Source of the DNA: a virus
Strand: one strand, 5' to 3'
Length of the DNA stretch: 64,000 bases
IMG/VR virus record: IMGVR_UViG_3300035698_012088
Location: 95,413 to 159,412 of that record
In this document: positions 37,489-49,653 of the stretch, in pieces
Layout: each line of letters starts with the position of its first letter
How positions within the stretch are numbered: the first letter of the stretch is position 1
The notes under the pieces: generated by a model
The model's input: only the letters and a program-made list of their open reading frames with translations
What the model was told of the DNA's origin: nothing
The model's database searches: none
Translations under genes and position numbers: made by a program

Positions 37489-37739
37489 TAGGAGATAAGC
37501 GTATTGTATTTGACACTTGAAAAGGAAAAGAAATGGAAAATTGTGATTCAGACTGCATATGCCCTAAATGTAAATCCTGTATTCCAACAGGCAAGAGCAA
37601 CCCTAAGAGGAAGTTCTTCTGCCATACTTTAAATAGAACGATCAAAGGTACAGAAGAATGTGCCAGTTTTGTAGAGGCAAGTGACCCGTTCAAGAAAAGA
37701 AACCAAGACATCTTGAACAAATAGTGGTTAAGTTTATAT

Positions 37740-37771
37740 GCTCTGGGGTGAAATATCCCCAGGGCCTTTTT
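37740..37771 (+). terminator. Intrinsic terminator
   Basis: GCTCTGGGG/CCCCAGGGC followed by T5. Confidence 0.65.
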
Positions 37772-37788
37772 CATGTAAAGGAGATGTT

Positions 37789-38559
37789 GTGAAAAGAATT
37801 CTTGTAATAGGAGAGAGCTGTAGAGATAAGACAGTCTATGGCAGATGTAATAGGATATGCCCTGAGGCACCAGTTCCCGTCTTTGAGTATGACCATGAAG
37901 AGACTACAATGGGTATGTCCTTCAATGTAAAGAATAATATGAAAGCTCTAGATACAACAGCAGAGGTAGAGCTTATAACCAATTGGCAACTTTTACCCGT
38001 CAAGACTAGATATATAGATATGGTTTCAGAACAAATGGTACTTAGACTTGATGAAGACGATTCCCTTCCCCCAATGGATATTCAGAAGAAGTTGTGTGAG
38101 CAGGACCTAGGGAAGTTTGATGCTGTAGTTATCTCTGATTATGACAAAGGTCTGTTAACCTATGATGACATAGCATACATAGCTAGTGTTATAGATGTAC
38201 CCTTATTCTTAGACACAAAGAAACCACTTAAGGCCCTATACTTCAGCAGAGTAAATTTCATAAAGATAAATGAAAGGGAAGAAAAGTTAAGTATAGCAGA
38301 GGGAGCCGATTTGACTAGAGGGGAAATGAATATAATTGTAACTTTAGGAAAAGCTGGGTGCAAGCACAACGGCATCACATACCCAGTACCTGAGGTAGAA
38401 GTAAGGAATGTGTGTGGAGCAGGAGACACTTTCTTAGCTGCACTAGTAGTAAAATATCTTGAAGAAGGCGACATCACCAAAGCACTGCCTTTTGCAAATA
38501 CATGTGCAGCAGAAGTAGTTAGACATCAAGGAGTGACCGTATATGGCCACTATCACTAG
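37789..38559 (+). CDS. HldE/RfaE kinase-domain protein (PfkB family)
   Basis: ILVIGE, RICPEAPVPV, KTRY, VVISDYDKG and VCGAGDTF; GTG start after AAGGAG. Confidence 0.85.
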   Translation: MKRILVIGESCRDKTVYGRCNRICPEAPVPVFEYDHEETTMGMSFNVKNNMKALDTTAEVELITNWQLLPVKTRYIDMVSEQMVLRLDEDDSLPPMDIQKKLCEQDLGKFDAVVISDYDKGLLTYDDIAYIASVIDVPLFLDTKKPLKALYFSRVNFIKINEREEKLSIAEGADLTRGEMNIIVTLGKAGCKHNGITYPVPEVEVRNVCGAGDTFLAALVVKYLEEGDITKALPFANTCAAEVVRHQGVTVYGHYH

Positions 38560-38567
38560 GAGACAAC

Positions 38568-39707
38568 ATGCACCCAGAACTAGAAGTACAGAAATACCTT
38601 AGATCTGGGAAGACCCCCCAGGACTTAAAGAATGAATTAGATATAAGATTTGATAATAGCGGCGACCTGTGGGGTTTCACCTATACACAGACAGACTCCC
38701 CTAAGATGCACCCTATAGTCTTGGAATGTAGAGGTATCATACTCGATGAGAGACAGAACTGGAAAGTAATCTATATGCCCTTCAAGAGATTCTTCAACCA
38801 CGGAGAAGCTCAAGAGATGGCTCCGGACAAAGATGATGAGAAATACTGGACCAGAGTTAAGCTGATGCAGAAGATAGATGGAACTCTCTTAGGAGTTTGG
38901 TGGTATAAGAATAAATGGAACTTCTCCACAAGAGGTAGGATTCATGCTTTAGGGCATGTAGATAGAGACCCTAATAAATCCTTTGCAGACCTAGCTACTG
39001 AAACTATAAAAGAGAACTACCCAGACTTCTGGAACAGGCTTGATAAGGAATACACTTATACTTTTGAACTGACCTCTCCGGAGAACAGAGTGGTTGTTCC
39101 CTATAAGGAAAAGGGCCTGACTCTACTGCAGATGAGAGAAGTTAAGACTCTACAGGAAGTAGGAGTTAATCCCAATCATGCACAGGAATTGGGAGTAGCT
39201 AGCCCTGAGATATATGAGAACAAGAGCATTAATGATCTAATGAGGTTAGTAAACTCTTGGCACATGTTTGAGGAAGGGATAGTAGCAGTAGACACCTCCC
39301 AGTATTATGATGGTTATAACTTCAGCAGAGTGAAGATCAAGAATCTGAACTACTTAGCTGTAGCCCATATAAAAGAGGACTCCACTAGAGGCTTAGTTAC
39401 TCTGATGCTGAACAGCAATGAGGCTGAGTTCCTTCTCCACTACCCTGAGTACACAGAAGAGTTAGAGGGGTATAAAGAGAAGTATAGTGCATACCTGTGC
39501 ACTGTCATGAATGAGTGGGAGAAGATCAAGGATATAGAGGATAGGAAAGAGTTTGCTATGGTTGCTAAGGTAGGAACCAATCCTTCTATACTATTCTCTC
39601 TCAAAGATGGTAAATACACAGAGGCTTCAGATCACTGGGAAGATCTTATAGGTTGGAAAGGTGAGAAGATGGCTGCTAAGATCATGATGAAGTACTTAGG
39701 AATATGA
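38568..39707 (+). CDS. T4 Rnl1-like RNA ligase
   Basis: ECRGIIL, FKRFFN, QKIDGT (motif I), FELTSP, EEGIV and RVKIKN. Confidence 0.88.
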   Translation: MHPELEVQKYLRSGKTPQDLKNELDIRFDNSGDLWGFTYTQTDSPKMHPIVLECRGIILDERQNWKVIYMPFKRFFNHGEAQEMAPDKDDEKYWTRVKLMQKIDGTLLGVWWYKNKWNFSTRGRIHALGHVDRDPNKSFADLATETIKENYPDFWNRLDKEYTYTFELTSPENRVVVPYKEKGLTLLQMREVKTLQEVGVNPNHAQELGVASPEIYENKSINDLMRLVNSWHMFEEGIVAVDTSQYYDGYNFSRVKIKNLNYLAVAHIKEDSTRGLVTLMLNSNEAEFLLHYPEYTEELEGYKEKYSAYLCTVMNEWEKIKDIEDRKEFAMVAKVGTNPSILFSLKDGKYTEASDHWEDLIGWKGEKMAAKIMMKYLGI

Positions 39708-39710
39708 CAC

Positions 39711-41140
39711 ATGGCTATGAAGAAGACACACTACTATCATGGAATATGTTCTATTAGTAAATTGCAGAATCCTACATCCTGGGCAACAATGTGCGGATTA
39801 AGAGTTATAAAGAAAGAGAGTAAGAGAAAGATAACTAGAGATGAAGAGAAGGTAACATGTAAATTATGTAGATCTCTACTCTTTAGGAGGTTTGTGGATA
39901 AATTATGAATCCTAAATATACAAAGATCATGGATAAGCCTACACAGGTTGTTCATATGCGGAGCACATTTCTGACAAGAAGAGTGTGCGATCTCGCCTAT
40001 GTTATAAACCCAAGAGAAGATTTAACAAGTGATGAAGATAAGGTAACTTGTCCTAACTGCCTATATCAGATGACAAGAAGTATATTGGAGGCATTATGAG
40101 TAAAATACATAGAAGCTGGTGGAGGAGGAATGAGAAATTACGTACAAAAAGGCTATGTGATGGAATTGATGACAAATATTTTGGACATATAACTATAGAT
40201 GAAACTAAAGTTACATGTAAACACTGTGAGAGAATAATAATTAGAGTAATGGCTAACTACTTATGAAAGACCTACCAAACCCTTGGGTACACTTTATGTA
40301 CTGGCAACCCATCAAATGTTTCTGGGGAGATAGTGTGAAATTAGTATTGTTTTGTGATGCTGACTCCATGTTTCATATAAGAGACTTAAAAAGAACTGAG
40401 TGCCAGGAGGAGGTAACATGTCCAAAGTGCAAGAGCAGAATAATAGAGAAAGCTCTGGAGAATTTATAGTACATTACTTTGATATTCAACATGTGCCCTA
40501 TACCTATAATCTATATAGGTATAAATCCTTATGTGTAACAAAAGGGCACCAGTTTAACAGTGATAAACCTAACAATGTTCCACCAGAAGAGGTAACTTGT
40601 GAAGAATGTCAAAGGTTACTCTTGATGAAGACGCTAAACAACCTGTAAAAAGGGAGAGGTGAAATGGCCGAACCAGTTCTATCAGAAGAAGACAAGCAGT
40701 TTCTGGCTGCACTTTTACCTGATGGTGAAGACGATACAGTAGAGATTAAAGAGAATAAGAAACACGCTATAGAGAATATAGTTGAGAACATATCTAAAGA
40801 AGACAAAGCAAAGGCAGCTAAAGAGAAAAGGGCTAAAAATGCTAGATACAAAAGACAAGAAAAAAAAGAGACTGAAAAGTTTCTCCAAGAACTTCTCAAA
40901 GATAAAAAAGAAGAAAAAGTAGTAGAAGAGGAAGAAGTAGTACACTGGGTTAGAAAGAAGTATGACACTCCCTCTCTGATGAATGAGAGTCTGGGGCCTC
41001 TATATCTTGCCAGATGCAAAGTGTATCTCCAAGGAGATGCAGAAGGCAAAGTAATTGAACACGGTTCTACAGACACAGCTGATGTAACATGTCAGACTTG
41101 TCTAGAACTTCTAATGGAAAACATCAGGGACGCTCTATGA
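39711..41140 (+). other. Zn-finger paralog array, block 1 (6 genes: 39711-39908, 39905-40099, 40096-40266, 40263-40469, ~40466-40648, 40664-41140)
   Basis: Each has an N-terminal [VIT]H, a central C, VTCxxC and a terminal helix ending in L. 40096-40266 (MSKIH...KVTCKHC...ANYL) was read directly from the DNA. Confidence 0.85.
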
Positions 41141-42420
41141 ATCAACTCGAAGAACTGCAACGCTTTGTAACAGAAGCAAACCAAACAACCTCAAGTAATG
41201 ATAAGAAGAAAGTCATTGCTAAATACCCACAGTGCAAGAAGATGTGGAATTACATATATGACAGCATGGCCTACACATATGGAGTAACCTCAAAGAGGGT
41301 TAAGAGCAAACCAGAGCTAACTACAGAGGATACCTATATCTCTATGGAAGCTTTGCTCCTAGATCTTAATGCTAGGGTCTTAACAGGTCATGCTGCAATT
41401 GCTGCTATCAATAGATTTGTAGCAGATAATGTCCAGTATAAGAATCTAATCTATGGTATCTTGGATAGGAATATCAAGACCAGAACAGATGCCAAGCTGA
41501 TCAATAAGATCTTTCCAGGATGCATTCCAGTATTCTTGGTAGCCTTAGCTGAGAAGTATGAAGATGGGATGAACATAGACTTTGATGTAGAAGTCTGGTT
41601 AGAGTCCCGGAAACTAGATGGAGTTAGATGTTTAGGCTTTGTGGATGCTGAGAACAATGTGACCCTTAAGTCTAGAACAGGTAAGCCTTTCAAGACTCTA
41701 GGTGTAGTAGGTAAAGTCCTTAAGAAGATGAATACACCCAATACAGTGTATGATGGAGAGCTGTGCTTAGTGGATGAGAAGGGTGTGGAGAACTTCCAAG
41801 AAGTGATGAAGTATATTCAGAAGAAGAACTTCACTATCCCCAATCCAAGGTACAAGCTCTTTGACATGCTAACCACTGAGGAGTTTGAGTCTGAAGTAGG
41901 AGATAGAATCCTCTCAGATAGACTCTCCCTGATCAAGGACAGTATCCCAGAAGACCAAGAGGTTGTCGTTCAACTTGACCAACATGTCATAAGAGATGAA
42001 AAGCATTTTCAAGAGAGAATGCAGGTCGCAGATAAGAATGGCTGGGAAGGTAATATCATCAGGAAAGATATTGGATATAAAGGCAAGAGATCCAAGGATA
42101 TGCTTAAGTGCAAGAAGTTCCATGAGACCGAGAAGGAGGTTGACTCAATAGCAACAGGGATGATTAGATATATTGAGGATAAAGTAGAATATGAGGAAGA
42201 GATGATGACTAAAGTTTTCATCACTCATAAGGGTAATGATGTAGGGGTTGGATCTGGGTGGAGTAGAGAACAGAGACAGTACTACTTTAAACACCCCGAA
42301 GACCTCATAGGTAAAATTATCACCATACAATACTTCGAAGAAACACTGGACGAAACCGGAAAATTAAGCTTAAGGTTCCCTACTATCAAGTGGGTTCATG
42401 GAGATCAAAGAGATACTTGA
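41137..42420 (+). CDS. ATP-dependent DNA ligase
   Basis: SRKLDGVRC, YDGEL, LFDML, WEGNI, LKCKKF, VGSG and LRFP. Confidence 0.92.
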   Translation: MNQLEELQRFVTEANQTTSSNDKKKVIAKYPQCKKMWNYIYDSMAYTYGVTSKRVKSKPELTTEDTYISMEALLLDLNARVLTGHAAIAAINRFVADNVQYKNLIYGILDRNIKTRTDAKLINKIFPGCIPVFLVALAEKYEDGMNIDFDVEVWLESRKLDGVRCLGFVDAENNVTLKSRTGKPFKTLGVVGKVLKKMNTPNTVYDGELCLVDEKGVENFQEVMKYIQKKNFTIPNPRYKLFDMLTTEEFESEVGDRILSDRLSLIKDSIPEDQEVVVQLDQHVIRDEKHFQERMQVADKNGWEGNIIRKDIGYKGKRSKDMLKCKKFHETEKEVDSIATGMIRYIEDKVEYEEEMMTKVFITHKGNDVGVGSGWSREQRQYYFKHPEDLIGKIITIQYFEETLDETGKLSLRFPTIKWVHGDQRDT

Positions 42421-42932
42421 TAGGATGAAATATAGTCATATAGCTTCAATACAGTAGATGGAGAATCGTTTAGGAAACCCAAAGCTTTATTACATCTACT
42501 ACATAAACACCCCCTAGTTTTTCCAGTATTATGGTCGTGATCTATACAAAGTATTCCTTCAATAATCCCGCAACAATTACATCCTTTAGCTTTAATTTTC
42601 GATGCCTCTTTTAAAGTTAAACCATATTTGCGCTGGTAGTGAAGATCTAGCGCCTTTTCTTTATTCTTTATATAATATGCATGGGCCCGCCCTCTGTTTC
42701 TTTTGTTATAGGCATGGTCTCTTTCTTTAAGTCTATCTTTATTCTTTTCACGGTACTCCTGATGAGTTTTTCTAATCTTGTCTTTATTCTTTAAATGATA
42801 CTCTTTACCCCATTCCTTATCGCACTCTTTACACCAACACTTATAACCATCCTTCAGGTTTTTAGCTTTACTAAAGAGTTCTTCAGCTGGCTTCTCAAGC
42901 TTACATTTTGAACATAGTTTAAGCACATCCAT
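42405..42932 (-). CDS. Endonuclease VII-like HNH endonuclease
   Basis: KYGLT, CNCC and IDHDHNTGKTRGCLCSRCNKALG. Confidence 0.85.
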   Translation of the reverse strand: MDVLKLCSKCKLEKPAEELFSKAKNLKDGYKCWCKECDKEWGKEYHLKNKDKIRKTHQEYREKNKDRLKERDHAYNKRNRGRAHAYYIKNKEKALDLHYQRKYGLTLKEASKIKAKGCNCCGIIEGILCIDHDHNTGKTRGCLCSRCNKALGFLNDSPSTVLKLYDYISSYQVSL

Positions 42933-43092
42933 CTCCTTTTAAAAAGCTGTTTAAGTTCTCTTCAGTCACTCTGGTAATCCCAGCCTTGGCTGCTTTGAGT
43001 TTACCTGACTTAATCCATAGTCTTACAGTTTTAGGGCTGACTTTTAGAATTTCCGCTACTTCTTTTACAGTGTATGTGGGAATAATACTCAT
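42919..43092 (-). CDS. Excisionase/MerR-type HTH protein
   Basis: YTVKEVAEILKVSPKTVRLWIKSGKLKA; SD AAGGAG. Confidence 0.8.
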   Translation of the reverse strand: MSIIPTYTVKEVAEILKVSPKTVRLWIKSGKLKAAKAGITRVTEENLNSFLKGDGCA

Positions 43093-44638
43093 GGATATCT
43101 CCTTTGTTGTTAAAGATAACATACATCAAAAAGGAACAAAAACAAACAATGTTGGTAAAAAAGAAACATTATGAAGGTGAGAGGGATGTGTAAGGAGTGT
43201 GTGCCCAAGTCCAGACATAGAGTTGTACACTATATACGACATGAGACCGGGTTCACAAAGTACATGTCATATTGCTGGTGGACAGGAGAACCTACTTCCC
43301 ACAGACACTTCACTACAGAGGAAGATAAAGTAACCTGTAAGCTCTGTAAAAAATGGATGCTTACTCAGATTGTGAGGGCCCTATAATGTGTAAAAAGTGT
43401 AAGCGTCCCGATGAGTCCTGGAATAGAAGCTCTCTACATAAAGTTCATCTTTGGACACATGAGTCCCTTTCTTTACCTTATATGCCTCCCTGTGGCTGTG
43501 AAGGTGGATACATCTGGGAATTTCTGCATTTCACTAAAGATACTGAGAAAGTAACATGTAAGACTTGTAAGAAGTTAATAACAAAATTAATATTGGAGGC
43601 TTTATGACAACAGTACACTACTTTAATATAGGATGTGAGGAGAATGGAAGATTAACACAGGATATGCATAGCCCAGATACTATGGCAATTGCCACTGAAT
43701 GTGGACTTATAAAGAAGCCTTTATGGACAGTAAAAGAACAGAAGCATACATACCTAGATGTCACAGAGAACAGCGAGGATGTAACATGTCCTGCCTGTTT
43801 AGAGATCATAACTAAAAAGATGTGTGAGGCACTATGAAAAAGAAAAAGGTACATTTAGCTAAGCCTAATCAGGGAGACCCTAGATGTGACTCTTGTGGAC
43901 AGGAGATAGTTGTATCTTATTGTGGGTGGAAATATAATCCACTTTCCCCCTTTATTACAGAAGATATAGAAAAGGCTACTTGTAAAGGATGTCTTAAAGT
44001 ACAAGCTACTTTAGAGTACATACCTAAGATCCACTATAGAGCTGATGTAAAATATACTTATTCTACTGGATCCTATGTTTCTAAACAGGCTATTTGCGGA
44101 CTACCTTATATAGGAGAATATAAAAAGAGGTTTACTTCTGAAGAATCTGAGGTTACATGTAAGACTTGTAAGAAGTACCTCCTAGGAAGGGTAATAAAGT
44201 CATTATGAGCCCTGCAAAAGAAAATAATAGGTTAACAGGAAAGCACTTTGTTGTGCAGGCAATGGGCACGTACTGGCCTTGGACCTCATTGTGTGGTAAT
44301 ACATATTATAGTAATGTTCTAGACTGTGTAACAGAGTCTCCAGATGAGGTAACATGTAGAGTATGTAAGAAGTTATTGTTGAATCACATATTGGAGAAAT
44401 TGTAATGCCAAGCCGACTTGATGAAGAAGATGGAAGAGTCCATTTTCATAAGTTCTCTATGTCAGATACACGGGATATTCCTCACTCTGTATCCTGGTGT
44501 GCCCGCTTCTTTGATGGCATCTGGGATTCTGAAACAGAAGATTATGTTCTTAGGGATGATCTGACAAGGAATGAAGAAGAAGTAACTTGTCAAAGATGTA
44601 TAAGTAACTTTGAGAGAGATATTATAAAAGCTATCTAA

Positions 44639-44704
44639 GGGGATGAAACGGCTTCGATTTACGTCATTGGCGTGAAGACTTGGGTTCGACTCCCAACATC
44701 TCCA
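44639..44704 (+). ncRNA. Minimal tmRNA-like RNA (tRNA-like domain only)
   Basis: GGGGATG/CATCTCC with G3.U70 and A73; stemless D-loop AAACGGCTTCGA; 8-bp helix TTTACGTC/GGCGTGAA; GAC linker; T arm TTGGG-TTCGACT-CCCAA. Confidence 0.8.
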
Positions 44705-46026
44705 AAAATAAAGAAGAGAGGACAATATGAACAAGGTTCACTATGTTAAACCATGGCCTGATATGCATATAGAGGCTTCCAAACTTAATGTCTATATGGC
44801 AGACATAGAAATGAAATCTGTCTGTGGTAAGGTCGTAGCCTTCAAGCAACTAAGAATAGTTGGACACCTTGTTGGACATCAAATCATTGCAGAGATTGAC
44901 AGCACATATAGAAGTCAAAGCAACTGCTATTGGGACACCAATATGGATAATGTAACTTGTGCTACTTGTAATAAACACATAGCAAAGGAAATTTTGAAAG
45001 GAATATAAATGTGTTATAAATGTGAAAAGGATAGACCAAGTGGTTACAACTTTTATGGAAGAGCTTCTAAGATACATTTTATAAATAGAGAGCTATCCGA
45101 GACAAATGACCCTATAGATGTGAAAGGCTGGACCTGTAGTTGTGGATATGAGGCTCTTCGTTGGGAACATAGACACGTTACTGATGATTACTTTAAAGTG
45201 ACTTGTTCTAAGTGTAAAGCAATAATTCCTCATGCATTTTTAGACGACCTAGTAGGAGAATTAAAGGAGAAACATGTGTAAATTATGTATAAGAGATAGG
45301 CCTAAGAAGTTAGGTATGTATGGACGTGCAAATAGGGTGCATCTTATGATAGAGAAAATTCCAAGGGCATTGGTCGATGACGTAGTTTACACTACACAAT
45401 GTGATTGGCAAGCTATAGCCTTTGAACATAGGCATATAACAGAGAATGTATTGGAAGTTACCTGTTCTAAATGTCTAAGTAAGATTGGGGAACTAATACT
45501 AGAGGGAATAGTACCTTCAAGAAAACAGTGCAACGGCTGGAAAAGATATAAGGCTATGAGAAAACCTAAGTGTAACTGCGGAAAGTGTTTAGCCAAATGG
45601 GAAAGAAAACAAAAAAGAAAAAGCATTGCAGAGTCTACTTAACAAAGAGATGGGAAGTCCCAAGTAAAAATAGAGACCACTGGGGTACATATATAAAGAT
45701 AAAGAAGTCTAGGATACTAAAGACCTTTCTCTGTAAGGCTAGAAGATATCCTAAAGGAGACATATTAGAAGAAGATCTCTCTAATGAAGAGGTAACATGT
45801 GCAAAATGTCTGAAGATAATTGTCCAAAGAACAATAGAAAGTCTGTGAGTCATTACTATTGCAGCCCTACTGTAGGTAGTTTTAAGAGGATACATAAAGG
45901 GAGGTTGTGTAAGTATGGCGCGGCATTCATAAAAAGATGGGGGTTTAGGATAACTAATTTAGATTCAGAGGTTATTACCTGTGAAGACTGTAAAAAGAGA
46001 TACTTAAGGTATCTAACAGAGGCACT

Positions 46027-46167
46027 ATGAGAAAGAGACTTAAGAAGAAAAAGAGATCCTGTGCTATGTGTAAACCCTACAAGATGCACTGGGAGAATAG
46101 GTGGAAGCCTAAAGACGAAGCTAGGTTGAAAGACTTTGAAAAAGAAAAGAAACAAAGAGAAGACTGA
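46027..46167 (+). CDS. Small basic protein (46 aa) inside the array
   Basis: MRKRLKKKKRSCAMCKPYK...; ATGA coupled. Confidence 0.55.
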   Translation: MRKRLKKKKRSCAMCKPYKMHWENRWKPKDEARLKDFEKEKKQRED

Positions 46168-48408
46168 GTCTTTAGACACCCATTACTACTTTAATTGTAG
46201 ACAATACCCTGATTTTAATATGAGACTTTGTTTGATTACTGCAAATGCCTACAAAGACTTTTATGACACAAGACACAGCATAGCAAACCATGAAGAGGAC
46301 GTGACATGTCAAAGGTGCCAAGAACTGATGATAAAACTCCTAATGACAAAAATATAGAATCCCATTACTACGGTCATCCTGGGGGGTACAGCATCCCCTT
46401 TAAGATCTGTAGCTATGCTCTCTCTACTATGCTGTGGAGAGGTCTCATAGTACACAATAAAACAGCAGAAGTAAAGTGTGAAAAATGTCAACAGAGACTA
46501 CTAAAAATGTTAGTGAACAGGCTATGAGTAAAAAACCTAAAGTACATTATTACAGAGATATTGAGATAGAGACAGAGAACACATATGAATATGATGAACA
46601 TGGGTGGTGTAAATACGATAAGTGGGATAATGCTATAATACGGCCTGGTAAAGAAATAACTGCTACCCTTACCTCTATATGTGGAGCAGCAGGAGATGAA
46701 GGCACTGCACAAATGACATGTGATATAGAAGATGGAGAGATAGTAACTAAGGTTACCCCAACAGAAAAAATTGATATGACATTTTGGACTAAAGATCCAG
46801 ATAAGGTAACATGTGAGAGATGTAAGAAAAGTCTTCTAAAGAAAACAGTGGAGGCGTTATAACATGCCTAGATCCCCAAAGGTACATTTGTTTAGGATTA
46901 TAAATCAAGATGTTACCCGCTATAGAGAGTATAACATGTTTATTAAAATAGAGACACTATGTGGGCACGAGCTACACGAGAATGTTCTGATTATACTGGG
47001 CTACGATATAGAGGGTAACATTACTGCAAAGGTAACTAAAGCCCCAGAAGACCCCAGGTGGCCTCCTTGGGGAATAACACAAGATCATGATAACTGCACT
47101 TGTGAAAACTGCAAAAGAATCCTTCTCTCTCAAACAATAAAAGCTTTATGAATAAGAAAAGAAAGATTTACTATATGTTTGTACCTACTCACACTTTCTT
47201 CTCTGTGACTAGGCATAAAGTTAGAACCAGTTTCTGGTATACTTTTGCCAGGCTAGATAAGAGCTTTTGTGGAAGGGAGCTGGTCTCAAACTGTGCAACT
47301 AATGATCTAAGTAAAGTAACATGTAAAATTTGTGACAGAATGTTAACAAGGATTACAGTGGAGGAGCTATGAGTAAAGAAAAAGTCGTTCATTTATATGT
47401 CTCCACAAATGCACATATATCTCACCGCAATTCAGCTAGAGATACCTTTCATGTGATATTTAAACCTAGCTCTTTGTGTGGAGTTCTCTTAGTTAGGTTG
47501 AACTGCAATATGGAGATACACCTGGAGCCGGACCATACTGTCCATACAAGGTTCTATGGTATGGACACTTTACCTGGAAGACCTCCCAAGTATCCACATT
47601 TGTTTACCTTGGACCCAGAGGAGGTCACTTGTACCAACTGTCTAGAGATTCTATTAAAACAAGTGACATCTAAGTTATGAAAAAGATTATACATTTTGCA
47701 GAGGCTCCAGAGGCAACTCCTTTAAGAGACCATATAGAGATAGCTATGATGTCAATATGCGGTATTGAAATAGGGTATACTAATTACAAAGTAATCCCTG
47801 AGCAGTTTGGATGGAAGCTATCAGCAACATTCATCCCTTTTGAAGAAGTGATGTTTGACGATGTCTTTTGGACTACAAACCCAGAGGGCGCCACCTGTGA
47901 GAAATGTAAGAAGATGATATTGCAAAGGACATTGGAAAGTCTATGAGTAAGATCACCCACATGAAGGGCTTTAATACAGATAAGATCACTAGGTGTGGCA
48001 AATACCGATATACCTTTAGGTTAGAAAGAGGTAGATGGAAGAACGATATAGCATCCATGACTGATGATGCAGAGTATGTAACTTGCCCTGGTTGTAACAA
48101 AAGGATTGTAGAGGAGTTAGAACTATACCTATGAGTAACAAACCTAAAGTACACTATTCTAAAGAGAAACCCGTAGTAGATACTTCTTTTGCCGAGGTCC
48201 GTGTCTATCTTCTTACCCAATGTGAAAGATATATAAAAGACTATTCCCTAACCTTTAAAGTAGTACCAGATAAAAACGGTGCACCTAATATAAGATCTGT
48301 AAGGGCCGGATTTGATAGAGATATCATTTTAGTAACAACAGATCCTGAAAAGGTTACCTGTAAAGTCTGTTCTAAGTATCTAGCCAAAAAAGTAGTGGAG
48401 AAATTGTA

Positions 48409-49188
48409 ATGAGAATTATTTCAAAGTTTCATGACTACTATGACATGATCATGAAACAGGGGTTTGACCCTAAAGTAGTATACAAAAGAGAAACAATAGA
48501 GATACTCCCAGAAGCCCTCAGGAATTCTAAAGACTGGGGTGCCAAGTGGAGGCAAGATGGTAGAGAGAGAGTGCAGAAATGGGGAAGTCCTTATGGGGTC
48601 TTTAAAAAGAAGATCTTTTTCTGCGGTAAGATATATCCCTTAGTGAGAGTAGAGATACATCTTCCCATGCCCAACGGGGGCTATTTTAATGGCTGTGAGG
48701 ACTCTTATCACTATTCTGCAGAATCTGCTATTACACACATCCTAAAACAGAAGCATATAAAGGCCTTGACCCATAAATTATATCGCGGAGTTAGCCACGA
48801 AGAAGATATAGAGAATTGGTTCTCAGATATTCCAAACAATACTATGTGGGACAAGGAGACCTACTCCCAGGTGGTGCCAGAAGCCTTGAAGCTAAGTGCA
48901 GAGCACAGGGTTCCAGTAATTACCTGGAATAGACGTACTGCCATATTGAACCCCTGTCTCAATGACCTTGAGTTCTATAAGGTAGTTGATCCATATACTG
49001 CTTTTCAGGAACTGTCTATGTACATGGGCAACAACCTAGCAGTACAGCAAGACCCCGTAGTGCCTGTAGGTGGAGATATCATTGTAGCAGAAAGTAAAGG
49101 TTACAATAGGTTTAGCTTTAGACAGGACGGTACAACCAAGAAGAGAAAACTAAAAAAGAAGAATAGGAAACATGGCAAAATATCTTGA
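48409..49188 (+). CDS. Hypothetical phage protein
   Basis: MRIISKFHDYYD...FYKVVDPYTAFQEL; TAATG coupled. Confidence 0.6.
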   Translation: MRIISKFHDYYDMIMKQGFDPKVVYKRETIEILPEALRNSKDWGAKWRQDGRERVQKWGSPYGVFKKKIFFCGKIYPLVRVEIHLPMPNGGYFNGCEDSYHYSAESAITHILKQKHIKALTHKLYRGVSHEEDIENWFSDIPNNTMWDKETYSQVVPEALKLSAEHRVPVITWNRRTAILNPCLNDLEFYKVVDPYTAFQELSMYMGNNLAVQQDPVVPVGGDIIVAESKGYNRFSFRQDGTTKKRKLKKKNRKHGKIS

Positions 49189-49653
49189 AGACATTTGGGA
49201 TAATGACATAGTTAATAATACCATTGTCTGGGTCAAAGGTAGTGCTGCTAAGGCTCCACAAGATAGAGACAAAGCAGTAAAATTACCTGCAGTTAGAGAG
49301 CTTTATGACTACGCTACCTTTGCTAGAGATTTAGTAAAAACCATGAGAGAGCAGGCCATAGAGAAAGGCTTTGCTCAGTATAACCCCAAAACTGGGGATT
49401 GGGAGTGGAGTGATGAAGTATAAACACATCTCAGTAAATTTAGAGAATACTCATGCTACTTTTGTGCCTGAAGACAATGATACACATGAAGAAGTAGTAG
49501 TAGCTCTAGCAAACCTCACCCTTGCCTTAAGTAAGCAGGGACAAATAGACAATGGGCGAGGAGAGGCTCTTGCCGCCTTATCTGGTATGGAATATTGGAG
49601 TATAAGTAAAGCCGTGTACGAAGAACTACAAGAAGCAATCATGGATATAAGGA

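Follow-up and report, generated by a model that had tools for sequence, protein, structure and literature searches.

Treble-clef fingers combine an N-terminal zinc knuckle with two ligands supplied by the first helical turn, and the Pfam family zf-HC3 (PF16827), known from small actinobacterial proteins, presents ligands in the order H, C, C, C over 67 positions. A further Pfam family, DUF8336 (PF27025, Pfam 38.x), is of unknown function. Large phages, in turn, have many small genes without an assigned function. Here we describe an array of 26 such genes in the IMG/VR viral contig IMGVR_UViG_3300035698_012088, which together encode 27 copies of one ∼55-residue domain with a predicted His-Cys3 zinc site. 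The domain resembles each of these families in part: it has the ligand order of zf-HC3 and a similar length; it shares with treble-clef fingers, such as the GATA and nuclear-receptor types, a CxxC, made up of the last two ligands, from which a basic helix starts, and the tandem use of modules; and it is like DUF8336 in size and in its small-protein context. On present data, the array is an uncharacterized paralogue expansion of a small, putatively zinc-binding phage protein.

Extent and Members of the Array

The window analyzed here is the whole 64,000-nucleotide (nt) stretch that forms the last 64 kb of the 159,412-bp contig (completeness estimate, 82%), and all coordinates refer to it. The array occupies positions 39711–41140 and 43171–48409, entirely on the + strand. 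Two hidden Markov model (HMM) profiles were used, one built from the 27 array copies and one from a 140-domain alignment that includes homologues from outside the phage. When either profile was compared with the whole contig, exactly 27 matches were obtained, every one of them inside the array (E 5e-16 to 8e-8). This agrees with an earlier note, made from the sequence alone, which had counted about 26 Zn-finger genes with 27 domains between 39711 and 48409. Each gene would carry one autonomous module, apart from a single gene with two. The members, all recognized by HMM, are as follows (aa, amino acids; pI, isoelectric point):

39711–39908, + strand, 65 aa, one domain; E 5e-16
39905–40099, + strand, 64 aa; ATGA overlap with the preceding gene
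40096–40266, + strand, 56 aa, the smallest of the array
40263–40469, + strand, 68 aa
40418–40648, + strand, 76 aa; ATG within the V-T-C codons of the preceding gene (52-nt overlap), after GGAGGAGG
40664–41140, + strand, 158 aa; domain preceded by a long charged N-terminal extension
43171–43386, + strand, 71 aa; additional N-terminal CxxC, and H-R-H in loop 2
43386–43607, + strand, 73 aa (84 aa from 43353); additional N-terminal CxxC
43604–43837, + strand, 77 aa; acidic, pI 5.0
43834–44208, + strand, 124 aa, two fused domains; unique in the array in having a clear orthologue outside (P0004, 45% identity)
44205–44405, + strand, 66 aa
44405–44638, + strand, 77 aa; acidic, pI 4.7
44727–45008, + strand, 93 aa; long loop 2 of 44 residues
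45009–45281, + strand, 90 aa; N-terminal CxxC and H-R-H; tail of 21 residues
45274–45642, + strand, 122 aa; closest paralogue is the 45009 gene (34% identity); basic, Cys-rich C-terminal extension
45597–45848, + strand, 83 aa; conserved His replaced by Tyr
45797–46030, + strand, 77 aa; ATG within the V-T-C codons of the preceding gene
46136–46357, + strand, 73 aa; only a TTG start upstream of the His strand
46306–46527, + strand, 73 aa; ATG within the V-T-C codons of the preceding gene; motif variant V-K-C
46524–46862, + strand, 112 aa (125 aa from 46485); long loops of 44 and 43 residues
46864–47151, + strand, 95 aa; long loop 2; motif variant C-T-C
47148–47372, + strand, 74 aa; conserved His replaced by Tyr
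47369–47680, + strand, 103 aa; loop 2 of 50 residues
47677–47946, + strand, 89 aa; acidic; long loop 2
47943–48134, + strand, 63 aa
48131–48409, + strand, 92 aa; final gene of the array, its stop overlapping the start of the next gene (TAATG)

Fixed Scaffold and Variable Loops

The domain is recognized by a few nearly fixed positions. Its three Cys are invariant, and the His and the Thr that precedes the CxxC are conserved at a level of at least 90%, both among the 27 domains and in the 140-domain alignment. Among the 27 domains, the spacing between ligands ranges from 10 to 44 residues (His to the lone Cys) and from 17 to 50 residues (Cys to CxxC), and the tail that follows the CxxC is exactly 12 residues long, with Leu or Ile as its last residue, in 23 cases. 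Mean pairwise identity is 6–8% in the two loops, which is the level of chance; it reaches 29–43% across the segments of the scaffold and 23% across the helix tail. In the single orthologue pair (the two-domain gene at 43834 and its counterpart on the related-phage contig L009), the scaffold is likewise the better conserved part, at 65% identity (39/60) against 28% in the loops (15/53). These values bear out the scaffold that the earlier note had drawn, in which a His, a Cys, and a VTCxxC leading into a helix with a final Leu recur from gene to gene, and with it the concept of a compact H-C-C-C module that carries two hypervariable loops on a fixed frame. The accompanying statement that the loops differ completely was slightly overstated, as certain closer subgroups share related inserts or extensions (45009/45274; 43171/43386; and a long-loop set consisting of 44727, 46524, 46864, 47677, and 48131).

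Four members (43171–43607 and 45009–45480) have an additional N-terminal CxxC, and three of them also have an H-R-H just ahead of the conserved Thr. From the residues present, this subgroup suggests a possible second zinc site.

Identity between paralogues is mostly 25–37%, about the same distance as that to homologues outside the phage, and no near-identical DNA repeats were found between 39000 and 49500, where the only repeats are those of the coding motif (60–88% identity). Because such repeats are missing and the paralogues are this dissimilar, the array is old and deeply diverged rather than the result of recent amplification. The same phage is present in four other public, independent assemblies at 99.94–100% identity, which leaves too little variation for a ratio of non-synonymous to synonymous substitution rates (dN/dS). 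Samples in which the phage occurs are ERZ27315476, ERZ27315773, JGI 3300025697, and SRR5458845. The array proteins span a wide range of pI, from 4.7 to 10.1.

Gene Junctions and Codon-Level Features

Approximately 15 of the array junctions are ATGA overlaps, three are TAATG, and in another three the next start lies 52 nt inside the preceding gene; the translational coupling claimed from the first inspection is therefore well founded, and coupled translation of this kind means that all copies should be made together. At the three embedded starts (40418, 45797, and 46306), the downstream gene has no usable ATG other than the one inside the Thr-Cys codons (ACA-TGT) of the preceding V-T-C, and purine-rich Glu codons (GAGGAG) ahead of this ATG may serve as the ribosome-binding site. 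The long form of a DNA ligase gene that interrupts the array (41089) would have the same V-T-C-embedded start. In eight other members, the same ATG within the V-T-C is followed by an immediate stop (ATG-TAA or ATG-TGA). A GAGG core falls within the last codons of the upstream gene at about half of the junctions (E-A-L, encoded as GAG GCN TTA TGA). Some start assignments are uncertain: a TTG is the sole candidate in one member, and several members overlap the preceding gene by 46–52 nt. Scans for promoters and terminators returned chance-level results only.

At the DNA level, the contig contains 16 occurrences of the recurrent GTAAC(A/T)TGT that had also been noted; 13 fall within the array, and every one is on the + strand. 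This string is simply V-T-C in phage-preferred codons, which are used in 13 of the 22 V-T-C motifs, as compared with ∼25% expected from codon usage. The motif is also spelled in several synonymous codon sets, which argues for selection at the protein level.

All 14 array genes that end at an ATGA junction have a terminal Leu, as compared with 3 of 33 such genes elsewhere in the contig, and this difference rules out the terminal Leu as a mere by-product of the ATGA overlap. An origin as a by-product of the embedded ribosome-binding site was also rejected, given that the GAGG core is present at only about half of the junctions. Outside the array, genes at ATGA junctions end in varied residues (K, T, E, I, L, and others), and Leu is the commonest end among the remaining genes (27/156). 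A C-terminal tag shared by other accessory proteins of this phage would therefore likewise not be explained by start/stop overlaps alone.

Predicted Fold and Zinc Site

Two AlphaFold models were obtained, for the first member (27-row alignment) and for the 43171 member (140 rows), with mean predicted local distance difference test (pLDDT) values of 78 and 79, respectively. In both, three strands precede a C-terminal helix, and the most confident block runs from T-x-D through VTCxxC to the helix end (block means 89–94; 93–94 from the CxxC to the helix end). The N-terminal part of the 43171 model, which contains the extra CxxC, was modeled at low confidence. In the first model, the His is located where strand 1 begins and the CxxC where the helix begins; the lone Cys falls in the stretch that connects strands 2 and 3. 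The order of elements in the module would be a His on strand 1, a strand 2 that ends in Cys-Gly, a short strand 3 (hydrophobic-Thr), the segment x-D-x3-V-T-C-x2-C, and a 12-residue amphipathic helix. The natural reading of these models is one zinc per domain on H/C/C/C, and such an ion would keep the module folded. With four ligands holding one zinc, the two stretches between the ligands would be free to change in both sequence and length. A self-association prediction for the first member together with zinc gave a score of 0.01, with no verdict from the predictor.

In the array and in the outside homologues alike, the helix is hydrophobic at positions +3, +4, +8, +9, and +12, and K/R are frequent at +1, +2, +6, and +7. 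As modeled, the constant helix at the C terminus is amphipathic, belongs to the core of the fold, and carries two of the predicted zinc ligands, and in this lineage the protein is predicted to end at the last buried residue of the helix. Position +12 is hydrophobic in the outside homologues as well, where the chain usually continues past it. An amphipathic helix that bears two zinc ligands, and beyond which homologues extend, need not be a handle for docking an effector, which was the role proposed for it in the earlier note; what stands of that proposal is the conserved basic face, which could contact a common ligand.

Distribution of the Family Outside This Phage

When 1.84 billion representative proteins were searched with the profile, 288 clusters were recovered at E ≤ 0.001, at least ∼260 of them from elsewhere. 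The search for copy number suggested at the outset gives 27 in the contig and 288 clusters among representative proteins. Among the best 150 of the 288, 128 are from elsewhere, and 78 of these 128 have at least two domains by a strict count; motif counts place the number of repeats in outside proteins at one to eight per chain. The homologues are located on phage-like contigs of both low and high guanine-plus-cytosine content, in a gene order typical of phages and with neighbors that include ThyX, dCMP deaminase, HU, peptide deformylase, and resolvase. Outside homologues with a single domain are strongly basic (median pI 9.4, with 82% above 8.5), as compared with 5.8 for the other small proteins of this phage. 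The long homologues have no informative fused domain, and a match to SprB repeats on one of them (P0038) proved to be a false positive.

The contig L009 (1.3 kb) belongs to a related phage and has four adjacent family genes, which end in Leu or Ile; one of the four has a clear orthologue here (the two-domain gene, 45%). No relatives of the phage emerged when viral and metagenome contigs were scanned with three of its genes (those for the ligase and the RNA ligase, and the two-domain gene), and in cultured phages neither the array, nor one member, nor the outside homologues had a match by tblastn or megablast.

Interrupting and Flanking Elements

The contig, which has no close relative among cultured phages, encodes, among others, an RNA-polymerase-beta-like protein, a DNA polymerase, and an anaerobic ribonucleotide reductase, and the array block sits in an accessory region made up mostly of small genes with no assigned function. 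Directly upstream of the array (37738–39707) are a PfkB-family kinase and a T4 Rnl1-type RNA ligase (RNA ligase 1 homologue), and the gene that follows the array matches only a family of no assigned function, phrog_4243. Each of the interruptions reported from the first inspection, i.e., a block of ligase, endonuclease, and helix-turn-helix (HTH) genes as well as a reduced transfer-messenger RNA (tmRNA), was matched in library or Rfam scans; the elements within the array limits that are not members of the family are:

41089–42420, + strand, ATP-dependent DNA ligase; the ATG at 41089 would give 443 aa, a start at 41137 would give 427 aa
42405–42932, − strand, Endonuclease VII-like gene (PF02945; phrog_2633, E 1e-23)
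42919–43122, − strand, small HTH_17/excisionase-like gene (library match)
44639–44707, + strand, tmRNA, tRNA-like domain only (Rfam RF00023, 56.3 bits, E 2e-19)
46027–46167, + strand, basic open reading frame (ORF) of 46 aa with one CxxC; no HMM match, not a member

The DNA ligase interrupts the array yet is coupled to it, as its 41137 start overlaps the stop of the preceding member. The Endonuclease VII and HTH genes follow directly after the ligase and are the only genes of the block on the opposite strand; this pair looks like an inserted mobile endonuclease cassette. The mini-tmRNA (69 nt) is wedged between the members at 44405 and 44727 and is without the tag-coding part. Together, the RNA ligase, the PfkB kinase, the mini-tmRNA, and several tRNA genes suggest a regional theme of RNA repair or translation rescue. 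The 46-aa ORF is similar to the basic, Cys-rich C-terminal extension (45480–45642) of the 45274 gene, and each of the two lies just before, and out of frame with, a member without a good ATG. Possible origins of the two are old frameshifts or N-terminal modules that became detached. Elsewhere in the window, a group I intron match was found at 763–1421 (51.5 bits, relative to an Rfam threshold of 50).

Possible Functions of the Array

Our tentative preference is for a panel of small binding modules, in which a basic-helix contact, probably with nucleic acid, is shared by all copies and the loops provide specificity. The array itself would be a lineage-specific tandem expansion of a small His-Cys3 zinc-finger domain that is common in uncultured phages, and its genes form a single co-directional block together with those for the RNA ligase and the DNA ligase. 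The basic face of the helix would be the common contact, with nucleic acid the favored ligand, and the loops may give each copy its own specificity, or a second partner, during host takeover. We infer zinc binding, the binding function, the preference for nucleic acid, and the timing of expression alike. In favor of nucleic acid are the strongly basic homologues, the basic face that the helix retains, N-termini that are often Lys-rich, and the likeness of homologues with several fused repeats to poly-finger proteins. Several observations weigh against this preference: one half of the array has a neutral or acidic pI (4.7–7.8), a better fit to protein targets; Tyr takes the place of the His in two members (45597 and 47148); the AlphaFold models are of only moderate confidence; and structural matches to nucleic-acid-binding fingers are not significant (best Z 2.6). 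Furthermore, on three contigs with 45–50% identical ligases, no copy of the domain was found within 10 kb of the ligase gene, and the array is thus not tied to a conserved neighbor that would hint at its function.

Alternatively, the copies may be a panel of protein-binding inhibitors or decoys, in which the loops would bind different host proteins (defense systems, RNA polymerase, or proteases) and the zinc core would act as a display scaffold; this is in essence the view of the earlier note, minus its common effector. This is possible, if somewhat doubtful. Such a panel is consistent with the extreme variation of the loops in both sequence and length, in which inserts reach 50 residues, with the wide pI range of the array, and with its place in an accessory region of mostly uncharacterized small genes; it would also suit fast turnover, as seen on L009, where a recognizable orthologue exists for one of the four adjacent family genes, and the independent expansion of the domain in different phage lineages, as arrays or as internal repeats. 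However, no member matches models of anti-defense or defense systems or characterized inhibitors, the family overall is strongly basic with a conserved basic helix face, and no host has been assigned, so that no target can be named. We consider it improbable that the members are adaptors for one shared partner, with the basic helix docked on a common phage or host factor and the loops recruiting differing targets, which corresponds to the common-effector idea of the earlier note. The strict 12-residue tail with its final Leu or Ile in 23 of the 27 domains, the Leu/Ile ends that recur on L009, the basic face that is kept even in acidic members, and the probable co-translation of all the genes would fit an adaptor; yet the helix is a core element (amphipathic, with two zinc ligands, and the most confidently modeled part), outside homologues extend past it or join the next repeat directly, and no candidate effector is present in the block, where the next gene offers only the phrog_4243 match.

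It is still harder to regard the array as a largely neutral by-product of unequal recombination between coupled units, with copies that are redundant or decaying. Head-to-tail tandem units with conserved junctions do favor unequal crossing-over, the doubtful starts described above (the lone TTG and the 46–52-nt overlaps) could indicate decay, and related phages are without the array. Against decay, all 27 domains have retained open frames and the ligand set (with Tyr for His in two) despite divergence to about 25–35% identity, the motif has been preserved through synonymous codon changes, and the four independent assemblies are 99.94–100% identical. Finally, many small Cys-containing genes with constant and variable parts might recall precursors of modified peptides or targets of a diversity-generating retroelement, both of which we regard as extremely unlikely. 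Precursors of ribosomally synthesized and post-translationally modified peptides would have a leader-plus-core layout, whereas here the conserved segments are at both ends and in the middle, and no peptide-modifying enzyme was found among the scanned flanking genes (ligases, an endonuclease, the PfkB kinase, and uncharacterized proteins). A retroelement target would call for a near-identical pair of template and variable repeats, which is absent from 39000–49500, and loop differences are a matter of length, not of point substitutions.

A more far-reaching proposal, and an unlikely one in our estimate, is that the array forms a natural scaffold-display library of ∼27 binders on one zinc-stabilized mini-fold, each of which would neutralize or redirect a different host factor (defense proteins or nucleic acids). 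If this were true, it would define a new general class of phage counter-defense or takeover proteins, with a module that is reused across lineages as arrays or fused chains, as well as a ready-made small binder scaffold. Regardless of function, 27 diverged copies of one ∼55-residue module in a single operon, together with hundreds of relatives, constitute a clean natural experiment, and a fixed core with loops that tolerate 10–50 residues is a candidate for a minimal display scaffold. The ligand of the module, once found, would annotate a whole family of metagenomic phage proteins, and would reveal whether repertoires of loops on a common scaffold, as found in immune systems and engineered binders, are also exploited by phages.

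Comparison With Known Families and Folds

The members have no above-threshold match in Pfam (10 members and 10 homologues, E ≤ 1), PHROGs, NCBIfam, or PADLOC, and in the last of these, none of the 27 matched anti-defense or defense models at E ≤ 0.01. When all 140 domains were compared with PHROGs, weak matches were obtained to the function-unassigned phrog_15583 (seven domains, best E 6.5e-5), phrog_30413, and phrog_7505. Sequence-profile matches in the PDB to TRIM RING fingers (E 0.07–0.2) were rejected as a chance ‘EEVTCPICLE’ stretch, and a sequence-profile search of the same database with a 7-repeat homologue returned no match. Foldseek found no match for either model in the PDB, the best result of a wider structural search (Z 2.6) is far below a meaningful level, and the fold search of BFVD returned uncharacterized phage proteins only (best E 0.11, probability 0.99, TM 0.59). 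The names of homologues were likewise uninformative, with none found in any protein source searched, and no relevant literature was found on DUF8336, zf-HC3, HCCC phage fingers, or arrays of zinc-finger paralogues in phages. Family, profile, and fold searches thus revealed no characterized relative, and in particular no family with one fixed function, so that the initial impression of a system not previously described stands as far as characterized families are concerned; it does not extend to novelty of the domain as such, which is widespread in phages and appears to overlap DUF8336.

The top structural rows for both models are U1/matrin-type C2H2 fingers (TUT1, SF3A2/Prp11, and the U11 small nuclear ribonucleoprotein), which have a similar strand-strand-long-helix arrangement, and this match is weak (Z 2.0–2.6, with a root-mean-square deviation of 2.4–3.0 Å over 38–44 residues). 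Membership in the C2H2/U1-type fingers is ruled out by the ligand pattern: the array has H...C...CxxC with the CxxC at the helix start, whereas C2H2 fingers have a CxxC in a hairpin and two His in the helix. With respect to treble-clef fingers, in which the two N-terminal ligands are held in a CxxC knuckle, the array places its His and Cys on separate strands, 10–44 residues apart. Neither sequence nor structure gave a significant match to these fingers, and no treble-clef chain was among the structural-search rows, a result that is compatible with the fold; the array has the CxxC at the helix start, and the knuckle is absent. The zf-HC3 family was a weak feature-based lead (score 0.77), and membership in it, for which an HMM match of at least 25 bits was required, was rejected, with no match in the contig at E ≤ 10 and none in the Pfam scans of the 10 members and 10 homologues.

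The closest candidate identity is DUF8336. By features and by shape, the members have as their nearest ESM Atlas neighbors clusters that are for the most part viral and without names, and DUF8336 is annotated on 28–32% of the proteins in two nearby Planctomycetota clusters, which are the nearest to two array members; a faint precomputed DUF8336 hit is also present on P0111, a homologue with six repeats. From these indirect leads, the array family is probably the same as DUF8336 or a sister of it. The DUF8336-bearing clusters are labeled bacterial (Planctomycetota), whereas the carriers of the array family are phage contigs, and the DUF8336 entry does not imply a 27-copy array such as the one described here.

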